64,000 bases of DNA from Catajapyx aquilonaris (GCA_000934665.2 JYFJ02001120.1:1-64000); one strand, 5' to 3'; positions 3,111-62,497 are shown, numbered from the stretch's first letter. The notes: generated from the sequence alone by a model not told the origin. A program made the numbers and translations.

Positions 3111-6100
3111 ATGGAGGGTCTGTGGCGTCGATCAATCTCTGAATCGGAGCTGATGAGGATCAAGACCTGGAGCGAGGTGGAGCACGTAAGTGCACTCCTG
3201 AGGTCTCTCAGGCTGATTTGGGCCGCGTCCTGGACCAATGGGTGCTACAAGGACGGAGGACCCACGGAGGAAAAGGTGCTGCTGCAGGAGGTTCTCTGCA
3301 GGCTCAAGAGGCTGCTGGAGAACAGGAACAGGAGGAAAGAGGAATTGCATGGAGCGATTCAGGGGGTGAGCGGATGGTGGTCAAGGTGGACGACATACTA
3401 CGCGACATCTAGACCACAATTGCAACGAAAGTGTAGGCGGAAGTTGCAGCTGGAGCCAAGTGCTAACGGGGGTTATAATTGCATAGGGTTTGCTTAATGT
3501 GGGCAGTGTGCTCCAAATTTGTAGCGAAAGTGTGGCCTTTGCTGCGGTAACTTTTATAACCAATCGCAAAGAGGGTTTTAATAAGTTGCTCTAGCTGCCA
3601 GACCTTGCAATCTTGGAGTATAGACATGCAAATATATGCACTTGACATGTACCGCTGTAGAATTGAGCTGGCATCCATATTGGCGGAAGTAGTTGACACG
3701 CCCCTGTCATCTCATATTCAAATTCGGTTTGGAATAATACATATATCAATAATGAATGTATTTTTCGTCCCCACACTTGAATGTGAGTTGACTGGAAATA
3801 TGAGAGTCAGAAATCATTTTCCTGATGCGGATGTCAACTAAATTTTGAAACACGCGGTATATAACTCCTGTCATGTTGGTTCTAGTGGCAGCCTTCGCCC
3901 CAAACTTCGCATCCAATCATGGGTTAGATGCCCCGTAGTAGAATACATGGCCGGATGATGGTATCCACCTTGAAGCTCCACTCGAGCCCATTAACCTACG
4001 CCACTCCACAGGTGAAAGAAAGCATTGTTGCAACATGTGATCCGCCAAATGGTCGAGACATGCAACATCCCCTGCGCCTGCTGAGTGTCTCCAGTGACGT
4101 ACAAGAGTGGCTGGATGACCTCAGGAAGGTTCCCATGGACATTGATTGCGGCGACGAGGATTGTCACATGTACGTGGCCGGAGACGAAGAGGAGGACCTA
4201 TGGTACGAAGAACCTGAGTCGGATCAGGTCGAAGAGCAAGGAACGACCGAGGAGGAAGACGAAGCAGTATTTGAAGCTCTTCGAAGACTAGACGAAGCCA
4301 CGGATGAGTGGGGCGAGACCGGGTCGTAAGTGTAGGCCAGGTTTTTTTAAATAACAAAGTGCCTGCCCGTTGCAGCGTATTTATAGCCACGTTGCCGGAT
4401 AACCTTCGTCAACCCCGGTGTGTTTCTTGTATCAGGATGCATAATAATGTAACGCCCAGAATAAACTCCAGGAAGGCGTGTGCATGCATTTTCACTCACG
4501 CACAGGACGCGACGAAACATTTCCCACTCGAATGGTCCTAACGCGTGAAACCACCACCGCACTTGACCTCCCATTTACGAAAAGGTCGAGGTCACATTTT
4601 TAGGGTGCGAGTGGGCGGATCAGTCTGGCTCTTGTCTTCTTAGTAAAGAAAATTAATGCAAAACATCCAATTGTACAGAGGTTAGGAAGAAATTTTGTGG
4701 CCTATTTGTTGCACATACTCGTACAGCAGTACTATTAACAATACATAATCAGACAGGTAATGACCCTGTTTCCGGACCACAGGACGGATTAACCTTTTCA
4801 TGTGTCAACAAACATATCCAATAGGTGCTTATGCACGCTTGGTGACAGAAGTAGGTAGACCCACTTGATAACTGAATCCATGACCAAACGTAAGGCCGTC
4901 CAAATATTGGCCCATCAGAATTGGACCCACTTTCCACGCTGCTGAACCCCACACACCGAGGTTTTAGCCCCCATTCTTCTCACGCCTGTGTTGGTCCCCG
5001 GTACCGAAATGTACACAACAGTCCGTTCCGTCAGGCAGGTGTGTTGAATTTTTATTAGCTTGATATACATTTGTAGAACTTTCTCCCCGTCCTGTGTACA
5101 GTGTGTTATGGCCATGAGTTCGCAGCCGGGGTTGTAAACCCTGGACTTATTCTGGTGCGACAGTGTCCCACGTGGCTCACTTGCTATTAATACCCGGGCC
5201 TTCAGTCTGCGGAATCCGACACCGTTTCCGTACACTTCGGAACTGAATAATGGTCCTTTCCGTCACTGCCAACAGCCATGAGAAACCGAAAACACCGGCG
5301 CATCAAAAGGACCTGCTTTTACACCGTTGCTTTTTCCCCCGGGGGAGGCTGCCGAATTCAGCTTCTAAAATTAAATCTGGGCAACATTCCCTTTCGTGGT
5401 CCTCCAGTTCAAACTAGAGGGTTGGGCAGATCGGTTCATATTCAGCACCCTCACTTGCCATTTCCCTTCGTGCCTATTGTGGTACCGGACATCCCTTGGC
5501 CATGTGCCGCTCTAGATATCAGCCAACCGAGCTAAAGCCGTCTGACTAATCCGACTCCGGATATACCGCCAGTGTGTGGCTTGGTAACGCGACGGGCAGG
5601 CACGGGCCTACAATGCGCGGTGTTTGAACCCGCAGAGAGATGGACACCCTGGCCATACCGGACGTCATACCGGATGAGGAGGTGAGGCTGCGGCATCTGG
5701 ACCCGAAGGACGAGGCGTACCGGATGAACAGGCACTCTGCACCGCCTGTGTGTGCTGTATCGGATGAAAGACACGGTGTTGACACATGCGCGTGCGGGTT
5801 GGTGGAACCGGTACTTGCGGATGACCACCAGTTGAGGAGGATCCAGGGACAGGCGGATATCAACAAGATATTCTACGATGGAAGCGGATTGCCGCCGAAA
5901 CCGCCGATGCGGAAGAAGCGGAAGTCGCGGACCGCGGTGGAGGACAGTACCGAACCGGTGGACGCGGTGGTGACGCTTCGAAGGTCGGATGGTAACCGGG
6001 AGGGTCGGAAGGGGAGTGACGGAAGTGACATTGTCGCCTGGAAGCAGACGCTGCAGTGGGTGGCTTCCGAGGATGACCTGGATCCGGGTGTGGTGCTCAT

Positions 6101-6116
6101 TCCCAGGGTTACTGAG
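3111..6116 (+). CDS. Three putative 5' coding exons (about 350 aa, no recognised domain) splicing in frame into the RhoGAP WW exon
   Basis: ATG at 3111. Exons 3111-3365 (phase 0, gtgagc), 4012-4325 (ccacag acceptor, phase 2, gtaagt) and 5636-6116 (ccgcag acceptor, phase 0, gtac) join without stops to 6299. All are GC-rich open frames. The full model is 2622 nt, 873 aa. Confidence 0.6.
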
Positions 6117-6298
6117 GTACAACTGCCAGTTGTGGTAGAAAACAAAGTTTTTTCCCGCGACCTAATTACGCGGTGGATAATAATTTCACACTTGAGTGAG
6201 CGGCAGGGTGCTTGGGAGAGAGATGAATGGTTCAATTTTGGGGGCTCTCAATAGGCTCATTTGAACTGGTGCCAATGGGGTTTGCTTCTTCTTTTCAG

Positions 6299-9233
6299 TG
6301 GTTCACTTCTCAAGATGGTGAGGGGCGGTTGTATTTCTTCGAGGAGAACAGCAACGAGTCGTCCTGGACGCTGCCAGAAGTATGCATCACCCCAAGCGAT
6401 GTGAGTTGAACCGGTTTGTGGAAGGTGGCACATTTGTTGATTTCTGTATGATTGCAGAATGTGGCGGCCTCGCCTGGGACATCCAGATCAGAAGACTCCA
6501 CGATGTCAAAGTCACTCACCAATGACTCCCTCCAGGAGATGGACTCAGGAATCCTTCCAGCTCCAGAGCACGGAAGCAGCTCCACCAACTCCAGCAAGCA
6601 AAATACACCTCCCAGGAATCTGGTGCTTGGGAGTGGGTCCAGGTTCATGAAGACTCGCTCCATGGTGGTTCTGGATTCAAGGTGAGAACGTTTGGAGTGT
6701 GTGTATCTTTTTGCAGCCATTTGCAGATGACACTTCTGTTTGTTTCTTCTAGGGGTGAGCTTTCCATAGGGGACAAAGACATCCTCAAGTCTTCCAGCAT
6801 ACCCAGAAATCAGATGTACCTTGAGAAACTGGTGAGTGTTTTGCTTATTTTGTTGGCGTTTTTGAAGTGGGAGAATATGGTTGAGTTTTTCGTATGTCCG
6901 GAAATCAGGTGTTAGTTTGTAATCTGTCCTTTTGTTGTCATGCAGCGTCCAGCCAAGGAAGGGCAAATGAACCGCACTAAGATAACAGAGCATGGAAAGA
7001 AGCTTCGCAAGAATTGGTCATCTTCGTATGTGGTGCTGACTGAACAGCACCTTGTTTTGTTCAAGGATGCCAAAGCATATCAGGCTTCGGTAAGCACTCA
7101 TTGCTTCAACTGTAACCTTGGGATGTGTTTGACCAGTCCTTTCTTTACCACCAGCAAAATATGGGATCCCATGCCAAACCAGAGTTAGTGGTGGACCTGA
7201 ATGGTGCCATGGTGGAATGGACGCAGGACAAATCGAGTCGCAAGAATGTGTTCCAGGTGAATACCCTGACTGATCTGCAAATGCTGTTCCAAGTGGAGGA
7301 ATCAGACATGGCCCACGAATGGTTTCAAGCTATTGCAGCTGCCGTTGGGAAACTGGTAAGGAGTGAAAGCGTCCCACAAGGAAATGCAGAGTCCTGTGCA
7401 GTGCATTCAACTTGGGTGTTGTTTTGTTGTAATCATAAAGCAATGTTGAATTTCTATTAACCGTCACATGATTTGATGAATAACAAGGATGTGAGTAATT
7501 CAGGTGACATTTGCCTGACCTTTCCCTCTGAGAAAGTTGAATGCACTGGACTCACACATGCATGAAGAGTGTTTCTACACACGGAGCAGAGTATATGAAG
7601 TATGTACCACATGTTTCAGAATTTATCTATCATCCGTATTAGCATAAATAATTTGGCTAGCAAATTCATGCATTCTACAATTATTGTAGAATGCATGAAT
7701 TTGCTAGCCAAATTTTCTGGAATTCAATACATGCCATGTATTAATTTAATGGAATTTCCTGCAGCCAAATGGGCGATACAACCGCAGGAGGCCCGGAAGT
7801 GAATCTCCCCAACTGATGGAGCTGTCCACCCCAGAAGAAGGTCGCAAGTTCACTCGACTGGGTCGCTCCAAGTCCACAAAAGGTAAGTCCTCGTAATGAG
7901 AGTAAACAAGGGGTGCCACATAGTCACCTCTCTTTGACCCCACCCACCCCACTCGCACAGTGAAAGCATTGGGAAGTACAGAGGATTTGAGCATCACCTC
8001 GGACAACAAGACCAAGATCAGGGCCAGGCTGAAGAAGTTTTTCTACAAGCGCCCCACAGTTGAGTCACTGGTCAAGAAGGGGATCTACAAAGGTAGCATT
8101 AGCAAGGTGTTCTGTAGTTGGCGAGGGATAGCCAAAGGGGAGGTGTTGAGGAGATATGAAATGCGATGGAAGTAATACTGTGGATTCAAATTGCCTCATT
8201 TTCATGTTGAAAGTAAATCACCTTCCATTGGCTATCTCCTGCAGTATGTTAGGGGTTAGATGCTTTGTAGTGTAGGAGGGACGTAGATTGCACCTCGGCA
8301 GTTTGCGCAAGACACCTGTGTTCCAGAGAGCATGTGCACCCTTAGCCCCCCTACCAATCAGTGATGACTCAGAGTGAACATGTAGCCGGTGGTGTTTCAG
8401 GTTGTGTGACCATACAAAGAAAAACCTGAACCCTTTCTTTTCCAGATGAGCCGGTGTTTGGTTGCTACCTGCACAAGCTGTGTACTCTGGAGAAGACAAC
8501 AGTGCCGCATTTTGTCCAACAGTGCATAGCAGTGATAGAGCAGAAGAAGGAGAACATGAAGGCAGACGGACTGTATCGAGCATCTGGAAACCTCTCCCAG
8601 GTGCAGAAGATCCGCCTGCAGGTGGACCAGGGGAATATGTCTGGACTTGAAATGGAGGAGGATGTCCATGTTCTCACTGGATCGCTTAAGCTTTTCTTTC
8701 GGGAGCTCAGGGAGCCGCTCATACCATTCTCCCTCTTTGAAAAGGCGCTCAAAGCCAGTGGTAAGGCTAGCAGCCAGATATTTTCTTCACACAAATAGTA
8801 CAAGTACTTTCTTCAAGTGTTGTTGAAGCCAGGTAGTGGATTATTGCCAGATTAATTCTATTTTGTGTTACAGGCAACCAGAACCACAAAGATAAGGTGC
8901 ACAAGTTTCGCGAGATTGTATCAGCTTTGCCAAAGCCCAATCACGACACCCTTCGGTACCTCCTAGAGCATCTCTTGAGGTATGTTACATTCATCCACTT
9001 GTGACTTGACGAGTTGGCCAGCCATACATTCTGTGACCTATCATTGTTCACTTTAATGCAGAGTGGAGAAGTGCAAAGAGTGGAACCGCATGCACATCCC
9101 AAACCTGGCCATAGTGTTTGGTCCGACATTGATGTGGCCCGAGCATGAATCAGCCAACCTGGCCCTGGACATGATGCAGCAGAACCTGGTCATCGAATCC
9201 CTGCTGCAAGACTTTGATTCCATTTTCAGGTGA
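6299..9233 (+). CDS. ARHGAP12-like: Rho GTPase-activating protein, ARHGAP9/12/15/27 family (WW-PH-RhoGAP), core exons
   Basis: Phase-consistent GT-AG exons 6299-6379 (WW: WFTSQDGEGRLYFFEENSNESSWTLPE), 6458-6681, 6753-6831, 6946-7089 and 7155-7355 (PH: KEGQMNRTKITEHGKKLRKNW...DKSSRKNVFQ), 7765-7882, 7961-8092 (KTKIRARLKKFFYKRPTVESLVKKGIYK), 8446-8760, 8874-8979, 9062-9233 (RhoGAP: VFGC...DGLYRASGN with arginine finger, LKLFFRELREPLIP, NRMHIPNLAIVFGPTL). Stop TGA at 9231-9233. Confidence 0.93.
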
Positions 9234-10657: not shown

Positions 10658-13600
10658 CTAGGCAGAGGACGAGAGTTGCTGCTGTTGGCTGGATGACGGG
10701 GGCATGTCCATCTCCATGTCCATGGTGAAGTCCTCTGGTGGAGGCACATGCTCCACGGCGGCGGAAAAGGACATACGATCCATCCTGGGAGGCTTGTATT
10801 GCTCCACGCGTTCCAGCAGGGTTTGAGGGTAGTTGGGAGAGTAGTACCTGGGGTTCGGGAGTGAGGAAAGGAAAGGAAAGGAAGATTGGTTACAGGCTGA
10901 TCAAATTTTTTGGGCCGAGAACTTCGCAATTGAGCATCAAGTGTGTGTCAACTTATTTCGTCAGTAATGTGTACATAGATACTAACGTCATGATGAATTA
11001 AAGAAAATAGGAATGGTACTGACTTGACCACCTCCTCTGGAAAGCACATGTTCACAGCCTTGATCTGTTCCATCAGCTCTGTTCCAGGTTCGGCCTTAAT
11101 CTCCTGCACCTTCCGCAGGGCTCCTGACTCCACAAACGACCTTCTGGCTATCGGGTCATAGGGCAGCATCTGAAAAGACAAGGAAAATTCATTTTATATA
11201 AGAGAAAGAACCTTTTTTATTTTTTAAATTAATTAATTAATTGATATTTATTTTACCACGTGATAGGCCTACATAGGCCATGTTGGGGGGTGGTACACCA
11301 CCATCACTTTTCTCGTATACTAATTTTCTTTTCCTCCGGTGCAAGGGGACAGGATAGGGATAAAAAAGAATATGCCGTATATGAAACAGCCTGCAAAATG
11401 TATACAGTACGTAGTATTCACTGATGGACCTTGCCAAATTCTGCCTCCCAAATTAAATGCAAAACAAACGTAGCAACTAACGAAGCATAATTAGCTAGGC
11501 TGTTAACGTCACGCAAGTCATAAATCAAAACCTAAGGTCAATGCGACAGTGGCAAGCACGCAATTTGTAGGCCTATAATTTTTTTCCCCGTTTATAATCG
11601 GCCCGACTTATGTTTCTGAGAACTACAATTGGGGCCGTTCGTGGATCCTTCGCTTTTTAATTAGTCGCCAAAATTAGCTCCAGTGTGGGGGCCTTCGACA
11701 CCACCACCATGTATTTTTTTGTGGGTCAAGCAACGGCCGTCAACTGTCCAACATGCGTCACTGCCCGTCAAATAAAAGTGTCCTCATCCACTTAGCATCC
11801 AATAAACCCCAGTCGCGATGACACCTGCATTGTCCCTGCAAGCCCCGGACCGCAACAAAGCAAACACAATATTTGCATGACGTATCAATAGACCCACAGA
11901 ATGGAACACACTTGCGCAAAAGGTCGAGGAATGGGTGGGGAGAATGTTATTATGAATTATGATTATTATTTACTCCAGCAACCACAGTTTCAAGCGAAGC
12001 AACATAGCGGCCCCATGGTGTAATGGTTAGCACTCTGGACTTTGAATCCAGCGATCCCAGTTCAAATCTGGGTGGGACCATTTTTTTGTTTTTGTTTTGT
12101 GCACTGTTCAGTGCAACCCTCATTAAAAAATAAAACAAGTAAACCGGTCACATGTACAGAGAGGACATCATGGGCACAATACGCCCGGTTAAGGTAAGTT
12201 ATAAAAGTACTTCGGGCACGACGAAGCTGCCTGGTAATTGCCAGTTTACAGAACAAGGTAAGAGTGTTCCCAGCACGAAAGCTTAGTGCACATGTGATAA
12301 TAATGCGCTGCAATATCGCACAGCCACCAGGAAAAGTCAAACCACATTTGCATACGTAACAATGTGCCCGTTAGCTATGGTTCAACTTGTCTCATAAGCA
12401 TTGCGATATCAATATCTGCGTTAACTTCTGGCCCACCCTGTATAATCGTCTTTCCCTTTTTTTGTTTTTTGTTTTAAAAAGAGAAACGATCCTGAAAATC
12501 AGCCAATGATAATGACAATTTTTTTTTCTTTATGTTTGAAAAAAAAGCTGTGTCAGAAGTGGGATTCGAACCCACGCCTGGAGAACCAGACTGCGACCTG
12601 AACGCAGCGCCTTGGACCGCTCGGCCATCCTGACTTCATGCGAACTACCGCAATCCCTTTCGCTCTATGTACCCTTTCTAATTTGGTTCGGGGGCCCAAA
12701 AACTTGGCACCAGCACCGGATTCCACGCGCAAAACCGGCCTTGCTGTTACCTCAAGCCCCTACGCCAAACTCCTAATGACGTCACTTCAGAAGAGACGGG
12801 GTACAAAAAAAAATAACAGAGATGTACTGTACTGAAGGGTATGAAGGATTGAAGGGGCGTTGTAATTGATAGTTACAATCCCCACGGGCCACTGCAAACT
12901 GCATGCGTTACTTCCATGAACAAGTGGGCGCACAAGTTCGATAATTACAGCATTTTCCACTGATGGTTAATTAGTCCGCTTGCCACATTTGGTCAACATT
13001 TGGTCTAATTAACACGCAATTATTAATATTATTGAAGAATTTAATCGAAGTAATGCGATAATAAAAAGTAATGATGAATCAATAGAGCAATATCCTGTTG
13101 GGGGTAAGTAAAGAACATCCCAAGAATTCCATGAAATTCAGGGCTTGTATTTCGTAGAATCGTAGATGGTCTTTGCAAGGCTTGTGATTGGTTTCTGTCT
13201 TGGACCAGGTTTCCCGGTGTCATTTACCCTGCTGGACGTCTGCTGGTATAGAAACCGAGCAAGCAGAATCAGCACGTGCGACGGGTCTTAATGATCATCA
13301 ACCTACACCTCCCGTTATCAATATATTGTCGTGACGAAAGCACCAAAAAGACGCGTGAGTGGCGTGCATGATCGGCCTGATAAAATATTCCATTCTGGTG
13401 GCCCTGTGGGATCTACGCGGGGTCTCACCTGCGTCATAACCCCAAATGTATTATTAAGGGTCCGGACGTGTCATCGTTGCCTAACTCGAAATAAACAAGA
13501 TGTGTCAATATACTCGTGGCGTAGAAACTCCCCAAATATTTGACGTATGCTGCATAATGGCGCGTGGCATGGTTTGGAAAAGTGAGAAAATGTTGCTGAC

Positions 13601-14836
13601 GATGGTAATAGTTACTGACATCACAATGGCTTGCAACAAAATGTTCATCCCAGATCCAGACATATAGTGTGGTTATTGTGGTTGATTAGACGAAGGACCG
13701 TATAATAACCAACACAATGAATCCCTTGAAACCGTGGGTGTCGATCAGGAGCCATGCCTTCTCCCATCGGGCACAGTACCGAACTTCGCATGTCTGCCGA
13801 CCCTTATTATTAGTGAACAGACTCGTCGTCAGCAGCCAGAGAAATCCCACTCATTTTCCGCAATCGTCCCACGCAGGCTCTGCAGAGGATTTGCCTCTGG
13901 AGTGTTTGCTTCTGCTCAGATAATGAAATTTTGTACAAGTCCCACACAGTATATACAAGTATATTCCGTGCGTTCCCTCAGAATGGAAACTCTCTTGGCA
14001 GCAGACGGTTTCGAATTGATTGACTGATTGAATCAACAGCGGACGTATTAGGACGTGGGCACGTTCCTTCCACGTGCCCACCATTCATCCCACTTGGCAT
14101 TCGATCGCACTAGGGTGCCTCATATTTGAAGCAAAAAGTTGGAGAAAAATGAGAAAAAAAACTGATAGTTACGTAATCATTTTTCAAGCATACCGGTACC
14201 TCCTGGGTGGCAAAAAAAGAGAGGGTATAGTCATTTCCCGTCACAAGCCGGCGTATTCAACCCCCTGTGTAATGGGTTTCTTCCCGGATGAAGCAGTAGT
14301 CTCTGGCCTTAATTACAACTCCGGACACTTGATTTGCTCTATTGTGTACCGTACGTAATTTCTGAAGAAAAAAAAAAGTGTATAAGGGCGACGACCTTGT
14401 GGAGAAGTCGTATGGTGGACACGTGTTCGAACAACGTGAGTGGGCACACATCAAATTGGTGATCACTGATTAGTCAACAATGTTATGGCTCGTGTGACAC
14501 AAGGAGCGGAGAGAGAGAGAGAGAGAGAGAGAGAAATAATAATAATAAAATCGATGGAATAATGTGACTGACGTCAATGACGCTTCCAGGTTTAGCTTCG
14601 ATAATAACGTTTATTAAGTGACGTGGAGTTGGCACCGGCTTCACTATATCGTGTCTATGCCACATTTCGGTACGCCAACAGCCAGGGCGGTTTATTTTTA
14701 GGTCAATTGTGATTAATTGATTTAGGTCCATTATTAAAGGGAAAAAAGTACTGGCAGGGATGTGCCGATACGCACTTAATGACGTTGGTCGCAAAGACTG
14801 TTCAACAAAAACTTGCCCACATGTGCACGTCGCGAC

Positions 14837-14931
<95 letters not shown>

Positions 14932-17900
14932 CACGAAGGCTATGAAGCGTATACAAAATGATAGGGAAAGAGTGACTCAGCTATCATGTGTGTCACTCCA
15001 TATCGATGGAGATAATAAGTGCCACGTTCCCAGTAGCATCGAATTTTATCCCAGTTGCTATCGAGAAGTCAGGATGGCCGAGCGGTCCAAGGCGCTGCGT
15101 TCAGGTCGCAGTCCGGTTCTCCGGGCGTGGGTTCGAATCCCACTTCTGACAATACGTTTTTTTAAAAATCCTTCTATCTCCGGAAAATCGCACAAAAATT
15201 AGTCAGCGCAACTGATTAAATGAAGAGTATGCACTATCTTTATTGCCTTGTAAAATAATTCCAAACCATGCATAGTAACTGCATGGCAACAAACTGGCGA
15301 GAACGGTAATTTTAATGCCGGTATCCCAAAATAATCGACCTGAATACATTTAGTCGACTCCAGAGTGGTCAACCTTTCTGACACCTAGATGCCGCATATT
15401 GCATCATTAATATCAGCGAAAATGGCCAAGTACTCCTCCTGTCCAGATAACCTCCAAAATGAGGCTAAGGGGTCACCAGCGAAACCTTGCGTGATTTTTA
15501 TCGTGGGTGGTATGACCCCTTCAGAAAAACCCCTTTTATGGAACCATATCGCCCTCAAGTTTTTTATATTCCTCCTTAGCGAATCACGCGAAGTGGTGCT
15601 GGTGCACAAGGAGTTCCAAACACTGCCTCTTTGATGTCCACAACAAAAGCAGTTCTGAACCACCTTATATAAGCGTACAAATTGGCTATATATAGACACC
15701 CGCAACAAATCCTTCTTTTTTCTCGTATTTTTTTAGTCCTCTGTTACGAAACCTTCTAAGGCCTTCTTACACAGTGTAACACTGTAGACTCAGATTCAGC
15801 TCACCAGGAAGAACCGCACAAAAAAAACAAAAAAAAATGATGGGAGCAGCCAGCATATACAGATATGTCATGACGTTGATAAAACCTATAAATAGACACA
15901 AGGTAAATAGCTTGATAACACTTGAGTGGATGGGTGTGGGCACATACGTCAAAGCAACAAACATCCCTCATGGCTTCCAGTTCGTTTCTCTCCTGACCTT
16001 CACCCTCCTCTTCATTAGCGATGTCCCCTTTGATTCACGCCCAGAATAGAGACGCCCTAATGGAGTCTTCCGCTATATGCACACATCATGTTCCGTTCCA
16101 AGAAAATATGGCATAATCAACAATGTGCTTGTCAACAATGGGCACATTTGTACAGTTTCTCCTACTATAGACAACTTTGTCTGATAAACGACGTGCGTTC
16201 ATTCAAGCCAATAAAACCTGTTCACTAAACCTGCTCCCACGTCGATAAAGTTTATTTTGAAACCCAATACGCCTTTCATACCCAGTTTATTTTTTCTCTA
16301 GAAATTTTCCCCAAACAATCCCAGCGCATTAAATATAGACCGAAAATATGGAGAGAGATAAGATATAGTCCTCTCCATCGATCTCCAAAGCAGCCCACGG
16401 ACAATTTACCCCCCTCCCCCTATACACTTGAAAGGAAAATGAAGACGCCAGTTTGCGCACATACTCTAGGCAGGACAATGGGGCCAACCTGGCAGAAAAA
16501 GCGACGTGAGATGGTGTACCTGCACATCCCAAGCCCCTTTATAAAAATGCATCATAATATACTTTGCGTCAACGGACACTTATTGCGAGTCCCGGCAGCT
16601 CCCATTGTTCTATAGTTTTATTATTAGCAGTAAGCAGAAGAGACAGGCAGCGAAATAAAGTGACGTGTACGGCGGAAGTTCGGTGAGAGAAAACCATGAC
16701 GCAGGTTCGGCTGCACCATGTGAGTGTGACCAAGCCTTGATCGTTGGTTGAGAAAGGTCACGGAAAACTTTCCACTTTTTCCACATATGGACGACCGATC
16801 CGGTTTTTTTTTTCTTCGTTTGACTCACTGGTGCAATAAACGACCAAACACTGACGTTACACCATAATATTACTCTCAGATAACATCAGACAGGTGCCTT
16901 AAAATAAGTCGAATAACCCCCCAAAAATAGCCCAAACTGGGGCATAAAAAGGCCCGCTATTATGAACGATAACTATCTCAATTCAAACATTCAAACATGC
17001 AGTCCTAATATATTAAAGTGGCGTACTGCATACTGAGCTGATAAGATTGAGCGTGGGATGTGCTTCCTAATCAACCAGCACACGTCATCATACACCGTAC
17101 ACAACATGTGGCCCAAAATTCAAGCGTCATACAGTATACCTGCACACATGAATATGATTCACCCTTAGTACATACGCTGACATTCCAACACCATGCATGT
17201 GCGTCCACGTGACTTATTTTTTGGGTCGATCCCTGAGGCTAAATTATCCGTCTCGCCAATAGTCAACGTGGGTTGTCGGTACCGCGCAGCGCCATTCGCC
17301 GGCTGGCAAAGGCAAGGGCCTCTGACGTCAATGGCCCAAAGGCTCTCAGGGTTCCTGCCCACAAAATGCTCCCGTGGGGGCTCCCATCTGGTTAGATCGG
17401 TCCGACAACGTGTCCTGGACAGAAGTGCTTGTTTCGCTCTTGGGTCACCACGGACGAGCTGGTGGTCTTAGGTACCCGGGTGCAACTTAGGGACAGGAGG
17501 GAAGACACGTACCGGCTGACCGGAAAGGTTGGTATTGATATCAATTGAAATCGATGTGCATGTGTTTCACTGGTGACAACTTCTAGTCCACGCTGGGTCC
17601 TCCTGCGGCTACCGACTGGCACCCTGCCATGATGCCGGACACACTGATGGCGTCCAAATCAGAGCCAGCTACCACCTCAGCATCCACATCAGACCAACCG
17701 TCCGCATCCGGAACATCCCCGCAGTACCTGGAGGACACGTACGATCTGCTGTTCCAGCGGTACGTCAACGGCCTGAGTGAAGTGATCAAGGGCAAGGAGC
17801 AGCAGGCACCTGAAGGTTCCAACAACAACAGAGGGTACTGCAACAACAACCAGTACCACCACCACCACAACGGGTTCCGTCTGGAGGCGGACCAGGCGCT

Positions 17901-20900
17901 GAGGAAGAACAAGGTGCTCAAGATGGACACTTCTGGCGATCCGATGGAGCACGGCGCCCTGCTGGCCCAGCTGCAAGGGGTCACCTTAAAGGACGCGGTC
18001 AGCAACCCGATTATCACCTTCAGCCACGTGGAAGATTCGGCCACCGGACCCGAACCTGAAGATCTGCCCGAAGAAGTCCAGTCGCCCGAAGTGGAGTTCG
18101 CCGAGGTGGATCTGGCCGAGGGCAGCGGAAGAACTAGTCCGATGCTAGAGGTGCCAAAGATGGACCTCAGCATGGAGTGCAAGAGGCCGCCGTTATAGAC
18201 AGTGGCAAAGTGACATTTCTGGACTTTTGTGACCAATGTTAACCTCATGTTATAACCAGGCTCAGTGGCGTCATATGTACTACAATAATGTGTGCTTCGG
18301 AAAAAAAAAAAAAAAAATCTAATTCTTTCCTCCTTGCTTGACACTTTTATGAGGCGCGGTGAGGCTCTCGTGTATAATGAAACCGCCAGCACTGGTTTTT
18401 TGTAGATATATTACTTTGTACCTCGCAAGTGTTACCGCGAGGACGTCACTGTATTTACATATTCTTCTTATATACCATAAAATGGTATGACTATGTATCT
18501 CCCTCCCCCCCTGAACCGCCGCTTTTTTCGACTATTAAAAAACATTCCGGCAAAAATATCAAGGCGTTTTTTGTGTGGAATTGAGGGGAAAGGTCACGGT
18601 CATCCCAGCCAGCCTGCGCACCATCATTAATTCACAGCCCTCCGTTACAGTATAGTCTTTGACACTGTTCCACCCGACTTGCTACAGGAAGAAAAGTCAG
18701 GCCTTAAAGGTGAGAGCCTGCCTTTTGAACAGCCGACGGTGGGGGGTTCCAATTGTGTGTGACAAGAGCTGACTGCGTCATCCCTTCGCCCTGTCCTGCG
18801 TCACAAGTGTCACGACTGATTAATTCCATGCACTGCTCTTAACCAGCGTGGTTATGTGCATTGTCGCACGTCCTCGACCGATCCGGCCCCGATATAGATG
18901 AGAGTGGCCATGGATTTCTGTCATTGGTATTTGGGTCGTCCCCATTGGGGTCCAGCAAATGACGTCAACGGGTCATCCCCAATGGTCACAAAATTTTGGC
19001 AGCCCAGCCAGATAAAACATCAGCTGCATCGTGTTACCTGCCATCCTATGTAATATATTACAAGCTTGTCACCTTTTGACGCAAGCTTTCTTCCTGGACG
19101 AAATGTGCCAACACCTCAACCGGAACCCCCGAAAATAGAGTACAGGCATGCACGACATGAAGGGCGCGGCACCCTTAAATTTTTCGCCGTACACATGTCA
19201 TATGCAGGTGGTACTTTTGAGCACGGATTTATGTTCGAAGCAAATTTGGCTCGATCGCGTGTTAGGCTTTTTTTTCTTGCTGTGTGGCAGATACAAATCT
19301 GTAAAAAGAACCCACACCTTGTGACGTCAACGTAGTTTTAGGTTCATTGATGAGGGGCATCCCGCGGTGGGTGCGGTTACCCTGGAAACTTTTCATTACT
19401 CCCATCTTGGTTGGTCGATGCGATATACCAAAAATAGAGCGGCGTATAGAGCCAGGAAGTGGCATAATGTATTATCCATCCTATAAGAAGTTGTGATTGC
19501 TGCTTCCGACTTATTGGGTTCTTCAAAAATTGTTGCTGAGGTGATCAATCTACCGCCCACAGGCCCACTTGAACTTGAGATTTGGTCAGTGAACGGGTCA
19601 GTGAACCATAAGAAGTATAATGGCCTATAGACATCAGTCAATACCCTCCATAAGTTGAACTCAAATCCAATTTAAAAGCTGGTCATAGCAACCTTGTCTG
19701 AAGATCAGTCAACAAGACCATGCATTAAAGACCGGTGCAAGGGACCCACATTGTACATCCACCGCGACGGACCTGGTACGTCGCTGCGAAATCACGTCCC
19801 ATTATGCAAATTTATTATCGGGTACACGTACGTGGTTAGGTAACACCACGCAAATGCCCGGAAGAAAACAAAAAAAAATGCTGTTTGACCACCAGTCAGC
19901 TGTGACGTTTCTCAAGTGCACAGTATATATTTAGCCACCTTTTTTTCCTCCGTCTATAGTTTATAATAGGCGGAAGTGACGTCCAAAAGAAGGTAACCAT
20001 GGGATACGGGTTACCGTGTCACAGCTGATTTGGATATATTTTCCGCCTGTTTGTAGGTCGGAACCGGTCGGAATCTCCATGCAAATTAGATCTAGCGATA
20101 ATGTTGGCAGTGGTCATGGAACTGTCTACATGCGGTATGTACAGGACGTATACAATAGGCAAGTGCCCATTAAATTAAGCGACGGTACATAAAAATATGC
20201 TGAGCATTAAAATCGGCACCTTTGACGTTACTCGCGACCTTGCAACCTCCGACTGCAGAAGGGTGGCGTGACATATACAAGTGTCCTTTTCCACGGCCTC
20301 AGTTGTAAATACCTGCAGGTTTTTGGAGAGCTCTATTATTTTCTTCCCTGCACCACAAAGTGACGTCAAACACCGAGGTTTCGGATGGCTTGTCACGGCC
20401 TCAGATGATCCGTATAACCCGCCTTAAACCGCGTTCATTACGCCAAATTAATGCGCACTTCTACGATGTAATAGTGGATTTTCGGTGGTGTTATAGGCTA
20501 TGAACCAAGTGGTGCTTGGGGTTCTCGAATGAAGAATCGGTCTTATTAACCCATTAACAGGTCTACGCTCCACCAGCATCAAGTGGACAGAACAGTGACC
20601 TAGCATGACCTTTAAAAAAAATGACACGCTCGTCGCATTATATTGGGTCGTAAACTACAAACGAAGACATTTGGACAAACCAATCGGCTGCTACAAAAAA
20701 AAAAAAAAAAATGGTCCTTTTGATCTCGTTATTGCAGACTTAATGGGCTCCCTGCTTCCTCCGTTGTCATGTAAAACACCGGTACCTGCCGCTTTTGTGC
20801 AGGGTAATGCAATATCCCCCTGGCAAAAGGTGCTCCCTTAGTAACCTACGCACTAATTACAATTTCAAACCACTCATTCATTATAGTTGCACACACACAC

Positions 20901-23900
20901 ACACACACTCGACCCCCCCGACCGCGAAGGTCATTTCCGGAGTCTCATGTGACTCGTCGCGTCATCGGCTGCTGGGCAGGCGTGCTTGTTAGTCACGCTA
21001 CTTCGGATCCAAGTCACTTAGGGTAATAGGCTGTAATCACTTTTAGGCCTAATGTTCGAAGTGAATGGCTGCATTATTTTTCAGGCTGCCGTACGGCCAC
21101 GTTTCCATGGCGACTTTTGTGTGCGAGGTGTGGGTGTCAGCCGGTACACGTAGGCGCCAAGGGTATTACTTTGTATAAAATTCGCCTCCTGATACTGTTG
21201 TTTATTCAACCGAAAAGACAGGTAGTGATTATATAGGCCAGTGGGACGCCGATCCCAAATGAATACTGAGCAACCTTGACAGTCTGAACCACAATGGTTT
21301 GAGTTCGACTCGATCATCGATCAGCTGACTGTTTCCGGGATTTCACTCTTAATCCGATTGCGTGTACCCATGCAGTCCCAATCTCGGTCCACTCAGCCAA
21401 TCACATAATATTATTATGCTTTTTTTTTTTGCTTACATAACCCAGCCAGCCTGGACAAGTAGTACTGATAGAAAGTTCTACACACCTACACACCTTGAAA
21501 GGATCTGATATTTCTAGAAAGACCATGAATATTTGTAGGTCACATGTAGTAGCGAGGTACAATTTGTAAATAATATTTCGCCGACTTCCTGCAGCAGAGA
21601 GAGTTGTTTCTCTTCCCAATCACATCAACAGTGTCGACCCTCGCCTTCTATTTACGGAGGCGTTTTAAGTGAAAAGCGATATCTCCGGGAGTCGAAGGAA
21701 AAACAGCTCCCGTGCATGCGAGCGCTATTTCTATTCCCAAATAGAAATCCGCGACTGGTATCCCCCCCCCCCCCTCCCCCATTAAAAAAAAAGGCCCGCC
21801 CACCCAAATCGATAGCATAAAAGGTAGTAAACGACAGGCGCTTACAAGTTAGTAGAGTACTCTAAAGCCTCGTAATTACAACAAGCACCTGCTTATTTAA
21901 CCCACCCTCGCTCACCCTCTGCTTTGACTATAGACAAAAGGGGTACAGTCTCGGGTACTGTATAACCTAACCAGCAACTTCCGATTGCAAAGCCATTGAC
22001 GTCAAGGCAGTGTCAGCCGCATTGGCAAACTCGCGCCATCTGCTGGCAGCGACGTTAGTTGGAGATCCATCTCTCGGTGCCGTTGGAATGACTTGGATGT
22101 TTTTTGTTTTTTTTTGAAAAATGAAAAATGAAAAATGAAAAATGAGAAATGAAACTCACCTTGACGTATTGGCGCAGCACGTGTCGGAGTATGTTGGGAG
22201 GGGCGTCTCTCAGCAGGGGGTCTAGGGAAGGTAGGTGGACGCACATCTGGAGGACCAGCTTCAGGGCGCTCTTGGCCTGCTTCTTCAGGTCGTCGGAGCC
22301 ACGAGGTGACAGGTACAGCTGCAAGTGGCAATTAGATCATGAGGACTATGAATTTCCACATTACAAAGACATTTCAGTAGGCTACTTATTTCTTTCAACG
22401 CAATACCATTGCTTATTATAACAATTACTGAAAAGGTATTGGAAGTGTTAAGTTGACCATCGGGGATAGGACCCCCGATAGGGCCGCATTTGAAAGCGAT
22501 AGAAACGCGAGCAGTCAGGATGGCCGAGCGGTCTAAGGCGCTGCGTTCAGGTCGCAGTCAGGTTCTCCGGGCGTGGGTTCGAATCCCACTTCTGACAAAC
22601 GTGTTTTTAAAAAGTGTTTCAAAATACGTGTCATTGTTTTGTGATGCAGTCATCCCATTATTATTCTTTGGACGTAACATTCCTATTATTGTACAGTACT
22701 TTTATTAGGGAAATAACTAACAGAAGGGTGGAGTCTCCTATTCTTGACACTGACCCAAACGTGTACAATACTTCCACTGCTAGTAGTATTTTGCATTCTT
22801 TTATTCAGATACCCTCGCACATACTGCACTCTTATGCACTATGTGATTCACATTTTAGGAGGACCACACTGGAGAAAGTCAACAAATTATTGGCATTCCG
22901 ATCGTCCGTTCCTTTCCATTTGTCGTAACACCTACGCTGCTTACGGTTAATGCTAATGAATTGCTGGTGGGAGTATAATGAACCAAAAGCCGGTTATTTG
23001 TCTTCAAATTAATGGGTGCACTTGCACTTTATGCAGATAACCTAGGCCTATATCATATTAGGCCTTCAAATTAATGAACGAATGCAGATAACCTATTCTC
23101 CATTTTAAAACTTGCATCACCCTAATACAGTATATGGCCTGTAATCAGTAAGTCTTGGAAGACTTCCAATTATAATGTGCATTACATTTGCATAACTGCC
23201 CAAATGTAAGCCACAACCATTTAACTTCTTCTATCAGTGGTCCTATGGTGTAATGGTTAGTAGGTACTCTGGACTCCGAATCCAGCGATCCCACAGTACA
23301 AATCTGGGTGGCCCTTTTCTGATTTCTTTTTTCAAATCAGAAAAGAAAAATACTGTACGTATTTTAAATACTGTTCGAGTACGTTGCTGTCTTTACGAAA
23401 CAACCGGCTAACCGCCTGGAGACTATAACCAGTAATGCAGTAAACTCTCGATTATCCAGACTAAATGGGACCAGAAGGCGTGTATCACAAATTTTCCTGA
23501 TATTGCTAAAGCCACGAAAACTCAGGATTATGAAGTACCTGCAAGAGCGCCGGAAAGACTCCAGTGAGCGCCACCTCCCTGGCGTGCTCGGCCGAGTGCC
23601 TCCCGACCTGTCCGATGGCCCACGCGGTGGCTGACAGCACGTGGTCCTCCTTCTCCTCCTGCAGAGCTTGGGCCAGCTGCTTCCCTCCCTGGGAGGCCAG
23701 CAGGGCCATGGCCAACGGGTCAGAGTGGGCTCCGATGTAACCTAGGGCCAGGATCCCCGGCAACCTAACGGAGCTCTGATTCTGGGCGACAAAGTGCACC
23801 AGCATGCCCAGCCCACCTGCGTTGACCACCAGCTGGGCCAGCTCAGGGCTGTGCTTGACAATCTCCCTGACCAGAATGGCCGCGTTGCGACGGACGTACT

Positions 23901-60900: not shown

Positions 60901-61099
60901 TCCTTGGTTCTTCTGTTGGACTTGTGAGGTGCTCCACTATTGAATTGCGAAAATATTATCGTATTTAAGGGCCTATTTTGTTGCCCAATTCGTGGACTCA
61001 AAATTGTAGCGGGAGATAGGCTACATACATAATAATTTTGTTTACTGGGCGTCTGGGCCATTTATTGAGGTAAGCTCGGGCTTTATAATGTTGCAGACA

Positions 61100-61162
61100 A
61101 ATAATAATAATAATATAATAATAATAATAATAATAATAATATAATAATAATAATAATAATAA
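61100..61162. repeat. Interrupted (AAT)n microsatellite
   Basis: AAT array with two single-base interruptions. Confidence 0.95.
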
Positions 61163-62497
61163 GCATATACCTTCAATTGGGAGCGGTGAGATTGTGCCAG
61201 CGCATTTTTGGACATTTTTGCGAGCATTTTTGCTCCCTACTGGCAGCAATAACTGGGCAGCAAGCGAATTTAGGCATGTTTCACTATACGACATTGAAGG
61301 ATGCTAACAGGTTGGAAATCATGAGTAAAATTCGCTGTAGGGGCGAACTGTTGTCCCCCCCCCNCCCCCCCCCCCCCCCAAAAAAAAAAATGCGCTGGGA
61401 CAATCTCACCCTACCTGGCACAATATCTCACCACAATTGACGGTAATTTATCGTAATATCAAGTAACATACGCAACGATTCGTCAACACTGTATATTGAC
61501 ACCTGTATAACCTTACGAAAGTTACTGAGGCATGAACAATGGGGAAGCAACCCTTTTTAAATAGCACAATAAATATGCACCTGATAGCCTACTAATTGTT
61601 ATGTAATTTTCCATACCGGTACAGAAACTATACTTTTCTTATTAGATTAGCTTACAATACATCAGATTACACAAGCCCTGTGGGAAAGAAAGAAAAAAAA
61701 GTTGTCGGAATCATAATGACATTGGCACTTTGGCAGTCCAATAGGTAGCCTACTACAGTCAGAAGACATTTTTTTTTTCTTCTTTTTCTGCAACCGTTTC
61801 CCCATGTGACAGCTAGGGACTTGGTCAGGGACATATGTGCATTGTTTTGTCATATATATGGCCATAATAAATTTCCGAGCCTTTTCCCTGGCTGATCCAC
61901 GCCATGTGGCATCGTGGCAAACATACAGCTAATACCCGTCGCAATGTTAGTACCCTTCAACTTCAATGACGCGTATTTGCAGAAAATCGTGACGCAGAAA
62001 AAGCCGCGCAGATTTTCCTGGCTATAGTATCGACCATAGCATATGGTTATTCCCTCTGAGGTTGCACAGAGAGGACAACCTTTTATGCCCAGGTTATTAC
62101 TCCTGGTCAGCTGACACTGCAAGACCTGTCGTCACATGTCTAATCCGGTGTCCACCTGCGATGTGGCCGCATTACTGGACCAAGAGGAAGGTGAGATATA
62201 TATGTGCCAGTGTGGCAGGGTCAGTTTGCTCTGCGGCTGACCCTAATAAGAGTCCACGTGGGGTATGCGCAAGAAATGTATCTTGTAAGATTAGATACCA
62301 GGTACTTGACACAACGGTTGGACTTGAGCATTAGAAAAACAGTGCAGATGATTAGATCCTGTCGTGCACAAGTGCATATATTACTGATTGGCTGCATGTG
62401 CGGAGGACACTTTCTCGTGTCATTGGGGGCCTGTTTGCTACCGCACGTTTTCAAGGAGAAGGGGAAAGCGGAGTGTTTGTCCAAATAAGACAGCAAA

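Follow-up and report, generated by a model that had tools for sequence, protein, structure and literature searches.

The phosphatase calcineurin (PP2B) is engaged by a number of proteins through short docking motifs. In the regulators RCAN (calcipressin; Sarah in Drosophila) and A238L, a disordered stretch with a PxIxIT-type motif, an LxVP-type motif and S-P phosphosites engages both docking surfaces of the enzyme, and the substrates NFAT and CRTC carry docking motifs together with serine-rich regulatory regions. The PxIxIT-type motif of A238L is reported as PKIIIT. Calcimembrin (C16orf74), for which calcineurin binding has been shown, is described as a small, disordered, lipid-anchored protein in which a single composite motif of overlapping parts (LxVPxIxIT) lies beside a phosphorylated residue. 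Here we analyzed a gene located in a 64,000-nucleotide (nt) stretch of Catajapyx aquilonaris DNA (GCA_000934665.2 JYFJ02001120.1:1-64000, hereafter the window). This gene is nested in antisense orientation within an intron of SPAG6, and the 189-amino-acid (aa) protein that it encodes, P0001, contains two conserved short motifs that may be docking sites for calcineurin. An original prediction, made from the DNA sequence alone, had taken the protein for an orphan calcineurin substrate, scaffold or competitive inhibitor.

As proposed here, P0001 has the ingredients of RCAN and A238L, namely a disordered stretch with motifs of both types and S-P sites, although the order of the motifs in RCAN is different. 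The proteins share no homology. P0001 matched no Pfam family at E≤10, Calcipressin was found in none of 22 family members at E≤1, and the FLISPP-type SP repeat of RCAN is not present in the P0001 translation. Nor does P0001 belong to NFAT or CRTC, which are far larger and are identified by Rel-homology and TORC domains that the same Pfam search did not find in it; the original prediction had likewise recognized none of these three families. P0001 resembles calcimembrin in its small size, its predicted disorder and its candidate calcineurin-type motifs beside a potential phosphorylation site. The two candidate motifs of P0001 are, however, separate, with the PxIxIT-like motif first, and lie 23-49 residues apart across its family. 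P0001 also lacks an N-terminal glycine for myristoylation after its start and has no sequence similarity to calcimembrin, and whereas calcimembrin has been shown to bind calcineurin, for P0001 we only infer it.

The open reading frame (ORF) that encodes P0001 is very likely a real, conserved gene. It starts with ATG and ends where it had been predicted to, and is preceded by an in-frame stop at 17584-17586, 42 nt upstream of the ATG. Its GC content at codon positions 1, 2 and 3 is 0.59, 0.41 and 0.76, respectively; the last of these compares with 0.78-0.86 in the SPAG6 exons and with about 0.45 for the window overall, which bears out the codon bias noticed earlier. The closest homologue, P0002 (203 aa), the one full-length match of a word-indexed search, is colinear with P0001 over its full length (100% coverage), and in alignments the first residues of P0001, MMPDT, coincide with the N-terminus of P0002 and also with that annotated by NCBI for the thrips protein P0034. 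When a family hidden Markov model (HMM) was built from 31 other proteins, excluding P0001, and compared with all 3235 six-frame segments of the window, a single match was obtained, in the frame 17587-18195 (E 3.4e-31; the next had E 5.1). This match falls in two stretches, one covering a helical island and the other the C-terminal islands described below. The opposite strand also holds a long frame, an antisense ORF at 17583-18248 (-) of 221 aa (275 aa from stop to stop) that spans the whole gene and probably arose as a side effect of codon bias. The antisense frames contain 17-25 stops in each of three termite-like orthologues and are thus not conserved; for this reason we regard the + strand as the coding strand.

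P0001 proved not to be the product of an orphan gene, as more than 50 homologues were retrieved. An exhaustive HMMER search of 1.84 billion representative sequences returned three proteins at E≤0.001: P0002 (6e-65), P0003 (449 aa; 5e-8) and P0004 (334 aa; 2e-5). A profile made from P0001 and these three matched at least 29 proteins at E≤0.01 (4976 candidates), and a profile of seven C-terminal stretches matched at least 49 at E≤1, 47 of them at E≤0.01 (8000 candidates scored). Word-indexed protein searches can miss distant members of the family, and these counts are lower bounds. All names attached to family members are "hypothetical" or "uncharacterized", and all named species are insects. 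They include Zootermopsis nevadensis (L798_12497), Cryptotermes secundus (LOC111868215), Neocloeon triangulifer (LOC132203463) and Cloeon dipterum (LOC135945879), together with Thrips palmi and Frankliniella occidentalis, whose members are labelled "DDB_G0271670-like", and, as a weak match (E 0.25), Gryllus bimaculatus. By sequence, P0001 is therefore a member of an unnamed family that has no Pfam model and whose named members are all insects. Pfam searches with 22 members gave only scattered noise (best E 0.0054, with no more than three members per family), a profile search of the PDB found no matching solved structure (best E 0.15), the ESM Atlas returned no usable match, and a full-text literature search with the motif strings found no paper on the family among the matches listed.

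In NCBI annotations and elsewhere, the homologues stand alone as proteins of 152-620 aa, and P0001 is 24-32% identical to the termite, thrips and mayfly proteins among them. Like the insect proteins represented by LOC111868215, P0001 has the helix island, a P-x-I-x-F-x-H-V segment, an S-P-L-L-E-V-P segment and an R-P-P-[LIM] end, in that order; a single-exon coding region is likewise common to both, as is, in termite-like contigs, a SPAG6 neighbor on the opposite strand. P0001 differs from these proteins in being a short form: the proteins of termites, thrips and the cricket begin with an extension, about 150-250 aa long, that carries the motifs L-x-G-x-x-I-x-LQQR and P-L-x-M-x-T-M-x-L-P and that P0001 lacks. 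Pattern and HMM searches of the whole window revealed no upstream exon for such an extension. Other members that lack it are P0002, P0031, P0032, P0047 and P0050.

P0001 is predicted to be mostly disordered. The AlphaFold2 model, computed with a 22-sequence alignment, has a mean predicted local distance difference test score (pLDDT) of 57.6 and a predicted template modelling score of 0.21. Its only helices span aa 38-58, where block pLDDT reaches 88, and aa 106-116; the protein, which had been called largely low-complexity, is better described as largely disordered. Four conserved parts recur across the family in the same order, separated by fast-evolving linkers of widely differing length (Table 1). 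In an alignment of 22 diverse members the mean column identity is 19%. Five residues are invariant in all 22 (P127, S170, P171, L173 and P176), and all five fall within the regions of the two motifs PIITFS (aa 127-132, nt 18007-18024) and MLEVPK (aa 172-177, nt 18142-18159), whose positions are those originally given and which do behave as conserved islands. Nearly invariant are L34, L49, I129, S166, S168, E174, R186, P187 and P188. The acidic stretch that had been noted between the motifs is also present, with nine E and three D among the 37 residues between HV and SP; the SP sites of the protein are those of residues 152 and 170. The same pattern of islands and linkers is seen among 33 proteins of the termite cluster, where mean column identity is 0.91-0.95 in the four islands (23 of 48 columns invariant) and 0.73 outside them (32 of 388 columns invariant). 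A further match to the loose PxIxIT pattern, PEVEFA, is probably not functional, because P0002, the closest homologue, is the only other protein that retains it. We also observed an internal near-repeat, at both the DNA and the protein level, between 17898-17928 and 18122-18165 (VLKMDTS versus VPKMDLS), the second copy of which directly follows the LxVP-type motif; it was found in P0001 and P0002 only.

Table 1. Features of the P0001 gene and its host, in coordinates of the window.
Feature	Position	Strand	Description
Single-exon coding sequence (P0001)	17629..18198	+	189 aa plus stop; ATG start
Island 1, amphipathic helix, aa 33-53	17725..17787	+	Pattern YL-x-D-x-YD-x-LF-x-R-H-V-x-x-L-x-x-VI; AlphaFold2 helix 38-58
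Second short helix, aa 106-116	17944..17976	+	pLDDT ~63-71; hydrophobic pattern weakly conserved; just 5' of island 2
Island 2, PIITFSHV, aa 127-134	18007..18030	+	PxIxIT-like; pattern P-x-[IV]-x-[FLYV]-polar, mostly followed by HV
PEVEFA, aa 153-158	18085..18102	+	Second loose PxIxIT-pattern match; P0001 and P0002 only
Island 3, SGRTSPMLEVP, aa 166-176	18124..18156	+	Serine/SP sites followed by LxVP-type motif; pattern S-R-S-P-S-P-L-L-E-[VIM]-P
C-terminal end, RPPL	18184..18195	+	Family pattern R-P-P-[LIM] at or near the C-terminus
AATAAT followed by genomic A17 run	18284..18317	+	A17 at 18301-18317; 103 nt 3' of stop; likely 3' end region or retrocopy tail remnant
SPAG6 (host)	11026..22336	-	Exon 4 at 11169-11026, intron of ~10.9 kb, exon 3 at ~22336-22055; exon ends approximate

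Additional relatives were obtained from a scan of metagenome contigs, in which five of 75 pattern matches were confirmed (L001-L005). Their similarity to named termite proteins suggests that these contigs are termite-like host DNA. The family gene is one uninterrupted ORF of 1323-1329 nt in all five loci. In three pairwise comparisons of termite-like loci, the ratio of nonsynonymous to synonymous substitution rates (dN/dS) was 0.55, 0.43 and 0.49, with dS of about 0.10-0.12. Judged by these ratios, the gene is under moderate purifying selection in the termite-like loci, as is usual for disordered proteins.

Two conserved motifs in P0001 fit both docking sites of one enzyme, with potential phosphosites between them, and calcineurin docking by the C-terminal islands is for this reason the best single hypothesis for their mechanism, although we advance it tentatively, at somewhat less than an even chance. 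Island 2 would bind the calcineurin catalytic subunit as a PxIxIT-type strand (P-x-I-x-F-S), and, 23-49 residues further on, the LxVP-type motif (M/L-L-E-V-P) would reach the interface of the A and B subunits. The conserved serines of the S-x-S-P-S-P run that immediately precedes the LxVP-type motif would be the sites that are dephosphorylated. P0001 would then be either a calcineurin substrate or a competitive regulator that functions like RCAN, A238L or calcimembrin, and its N-terminal helix could serve an output or targeting function.

Both motifs agree with published patterns. The loose consensus has been given as P[^PG][FILV][^PG][FILV][^PG] for PxIxIT and L.[ILV]P for LxVP (10.1101/632547), and PIITFS (aa 127-132) and LEVP (aa 173-176) of P0001 conform to these. 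Clustering of 53 family proteins at 50% identity gave 13 clusters, whose island strings we read by eye. Island 2 fits the loose consensus in 11 of the 13 clusters, the two misses having Y at position 5, and island 3 fits in 12, the thrips cluster having LEMP. Within island 2, positions 1, 3 and 5 are conserved and positions 2 and 4 vary (V/I/M/R/T and T/I/V), which is as expected of a PxIxIT strand. The S-x-S-P-S-P run is nearly invariant, and both motifs lie in coil or disorder in the AlphaFold2 model. A PxIxIT match followed by a hydrophobic-LxVP match within 10-60 residues occurred in 0.04% of 20000 shuffles of P0001, in a test that used stricter patterns and that was designed after the motifs had been seen.

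A number of observations weigh against calcineurin docking. With the stricter PxIxIT pattern, single motif matches occurred in 17% and 19% of the P0001 shuffles, and 78 other open frames of the window gave 0.34 and 0.28 of them per 189 aa. Position 5 of island 2 is F in most members, Y in two of 13 clusters (outside the pattern) and L in others, and calcineurin ligands are reported to have mostly I or V at this position. The H-V that follows island 2 in most members is not explained by a PxIxIT motif, nor are the conserved E174 and the R-P-P-[LIM] end explained by calcineurin docking. The LxVP-type motif itself is LEMP in thrips and LGVP in the closest homologue, P0002. Finally, nearly all of the 21,791 and 13,014 matches to the docking patterns in human proteins are expected to be non-binders, according to the study that lists them (10.1101/632547). 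Taken as a whole, the statement that this is a real, single-exon nested gene, that it encodes a disordered family protein and that its C-terminal islands are calcineurin docking motifs is one that we put forward as tentative.

The same conserved positions are what an unlikely but substantial alternative would draw on, in which the gene and the family are real and the islands dock to partners other than calcineurin. Island 2 would then act by beta-strand addition and island 3 as a proline-directed phospho-switch, with the helix as the main binder. The conservation of F/Y at position 5, of H-V, of E174 and of R-P-P-[LIM] goes beyond the calcineurin consensus and is not explained by it, the family matches no known family or structure, and most pattern matches are held to be non-binders of calcineurin (10.1101/632547). 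Against this, a single enzyme, calcineurin, has docking motifs that match both of these independent islands, their order and spacing are workable, and serine sites lie between them; no alternative partner accounts for both islands.

A more specific proposal, which we consider improbable, is that P0001 is a short-lived regulator controlled by turnover instead of by a phosphatase. Substrates of Cdc4/FBXW7 carry an S-P-x-x-E phosphodegron, and Atg8-type interaction motifs have the core F-x-x-V; island 3 would correspond to the former and/or island 2 to the latter. S170, P171 and E174 are indeed invariant or nearly so, with the E four residues after the S, and F/Y-x-H-V is kept in most clusters, with exchange of F for Y. 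However, the closest homologue, P0002, has G in place of the E, the aromatic residue is absent from the mayfly and cricket members, and both consensus patterns are very degenerate. In addition, the invariant L173 and P176 lie outside the degron, and P127 (invariant) and I129 (nearly so) lie outside the Atg8-interacting core.

Three other readings of the islands were compared with consensus patterns and rejected. A PP1 RVxF site would need a conserved basic residue at a set distance, and none is present; a PP2A-B56 LxxIxE site would need a conserved E, which is missing; and a 14-3-3 mode-1 site would have its P at +2, where there is none, the P being at +1.

The host of the nested gene, the sperm-tail gene SPAG6, was identified from a 225-aa exon at 24183-23506 (-), which matches PDB entry 9ijj, "Sperm-associated antigen 6" (E 4e-88), and Chlamydomonas PF16 (E 4e-81). 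Exon 4 and exon 5 (from 10846) were located by a motif search of the minus-strand frames. As had been described, the P0001 gene is antisense to SPAG6 and lies inside a large intron, between exons 3 and 4; exon 3, on the other strand, is 3.9 kb downstream of it. A full-text literature search found no paper on a gene nested in a SPAG6 intron.

We compared this arrangement with that in the termite-like contigs, where the strand opposite the family gene carries a stretch resembling SPAG6 exon 3 about 1.2 kb downstream. In L005 (4186-4308, -), 18 of 41 residues are identical to exon 3 of the window (E 2e-6) and there is one in-frame stop; in L001 (4168-4317, -), 15 of 50 are identical (E 0.018), with three stops; and L002 (about 12430-12760, -) gave no tblastn match, yet the homologous DNA reads as the same peptide with four stops. 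The order and orientation of the gene and exon 3 are identical in these contigs and in the window. Because an exon relic of SPAG6 stands beside the family gene in the termite-like contigs, we take the neighborhood to be conserved and old. A weak exon-4-like stretch lies 1.5 kb upstream, also on the opposite strand, in L002 (8454-8492, -) and at the matching places of L001, L003 and L005; seven of 13 residues are identical (E ~2), with stops in two loci. Its position is the one that nesting predicts, and on its own it is not significant. The expectation that the nested position would be kept was borne out with respect to the place beside SPAG6 on the opposite strand.

SPAG6 seems to have decayed in the termite-like insects while the nested gene stayed intact, so that the gene would have outlived its host. 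SPAG6/PF16 is a protein of the axonemal central pair. Its decay in the termite-like contigs fits the literature on termite sperm, in which some termites are reported to have aflagellate sperm (PMC7140630) and Mastotermes to have axonemes without central tubules (PMC2110012). It is doubtful whether the broadest version of our proposal holds, namely that P0001 represents a hitherto unrecognized, arthropod-wide calcineurin regulator or substrate, RCAN-like in function but unrelated to RCAN, that has been nested antisense in the SPAG6 intron since before its lineage separated from that of termites and has outlived SPAG6 in termites.

These comparisons also bear on the possibility, in our estimate quite remote, that the window copy arose as a processed retrocopy inserted into the SPAG6 intron, which would make the nesting accidental to this genome. 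Such an origin would be in keeping with the lack of introns and with the A17 run downstream of the stop, which has AATAAT 17 nt before it and is one of just six A-runs of at least 12 on the + strand in 64 kb. The termite-like orthologues, however, are also single uninterrupted ORFs and adjoin the SPAG6 exon-3 relic in the same order and orientation, and no target-site duplication was found around the P0001 gene. A retrocopy origin would in any case leave the reading of the protein's function unchanged. Independently of its origin, the A17 run could cause internal priming in RNA-seq libraries.

Upstream of P0001, the + strand carries a PH-RhoGAP gene with PH and RhoGAP exons at 6916-8798. It is extremely unlikely that the ORF is the last coding exon of that gene, for which a possible acceptor AG exists at 17585-17586, at the in-frame stop, or a chance open frame, as the open antisense strand might suggest, since the homologues, which exclude a chance frame, have no PH or RhoGAP domains, the P0001 start is common to P0002 and thrips P0034, and the last two exons of SPAG6 separate the RhoGAP exons from the ORF.

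Elsewhere in the window, two ORFs on the + strand 5' of the PH-RhoGAP exons, at 3928-4329 (133 aa) and 5628-6254 (208 aa), have no Pfam match and may belong to the RhoGAP gene as additional exons, and a PIP5K-family kinase gene lies past SPAG6 on the minus strand. Four tRNA genes are located in SPAG6 introns, at 12009-12080 (+), 12550-12634 (-), 15068-15151 (+) and 22514-22597 (+); they comprise one tRNA-Gln(TTG) and three copies of tRNA-Leu(CAG) with equal Rfam scores. Three of the four share the 10.9-kb intron with P0001, and this intron therefore hosts several nested genes. A long AAT/ATT trinucleotide microsatellite at 14483-15202 would be translated as poly-Asn or poly-Ile where frames are open, and similar runs occur near 61000-61300.

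P0001 is a testable and well-defined candidate in an attractive evolutionary setting, and its proposed function rests on motif fit and conservation. The sites to mutate are clear, and orthologues exist in crickets, thrips and termites that are amenable to RNA interference. If the motifs bind calcineurin, the family, still without a name, would provide a dedicated and so far unstudied small calcineurin partner in insects and their relatives. Apart from function, the locus offers a clean case in which a nested gene has held its position through deep time, and the apparent survival of the nested gene beyond its host bears on the evolution of nested gene pairs.

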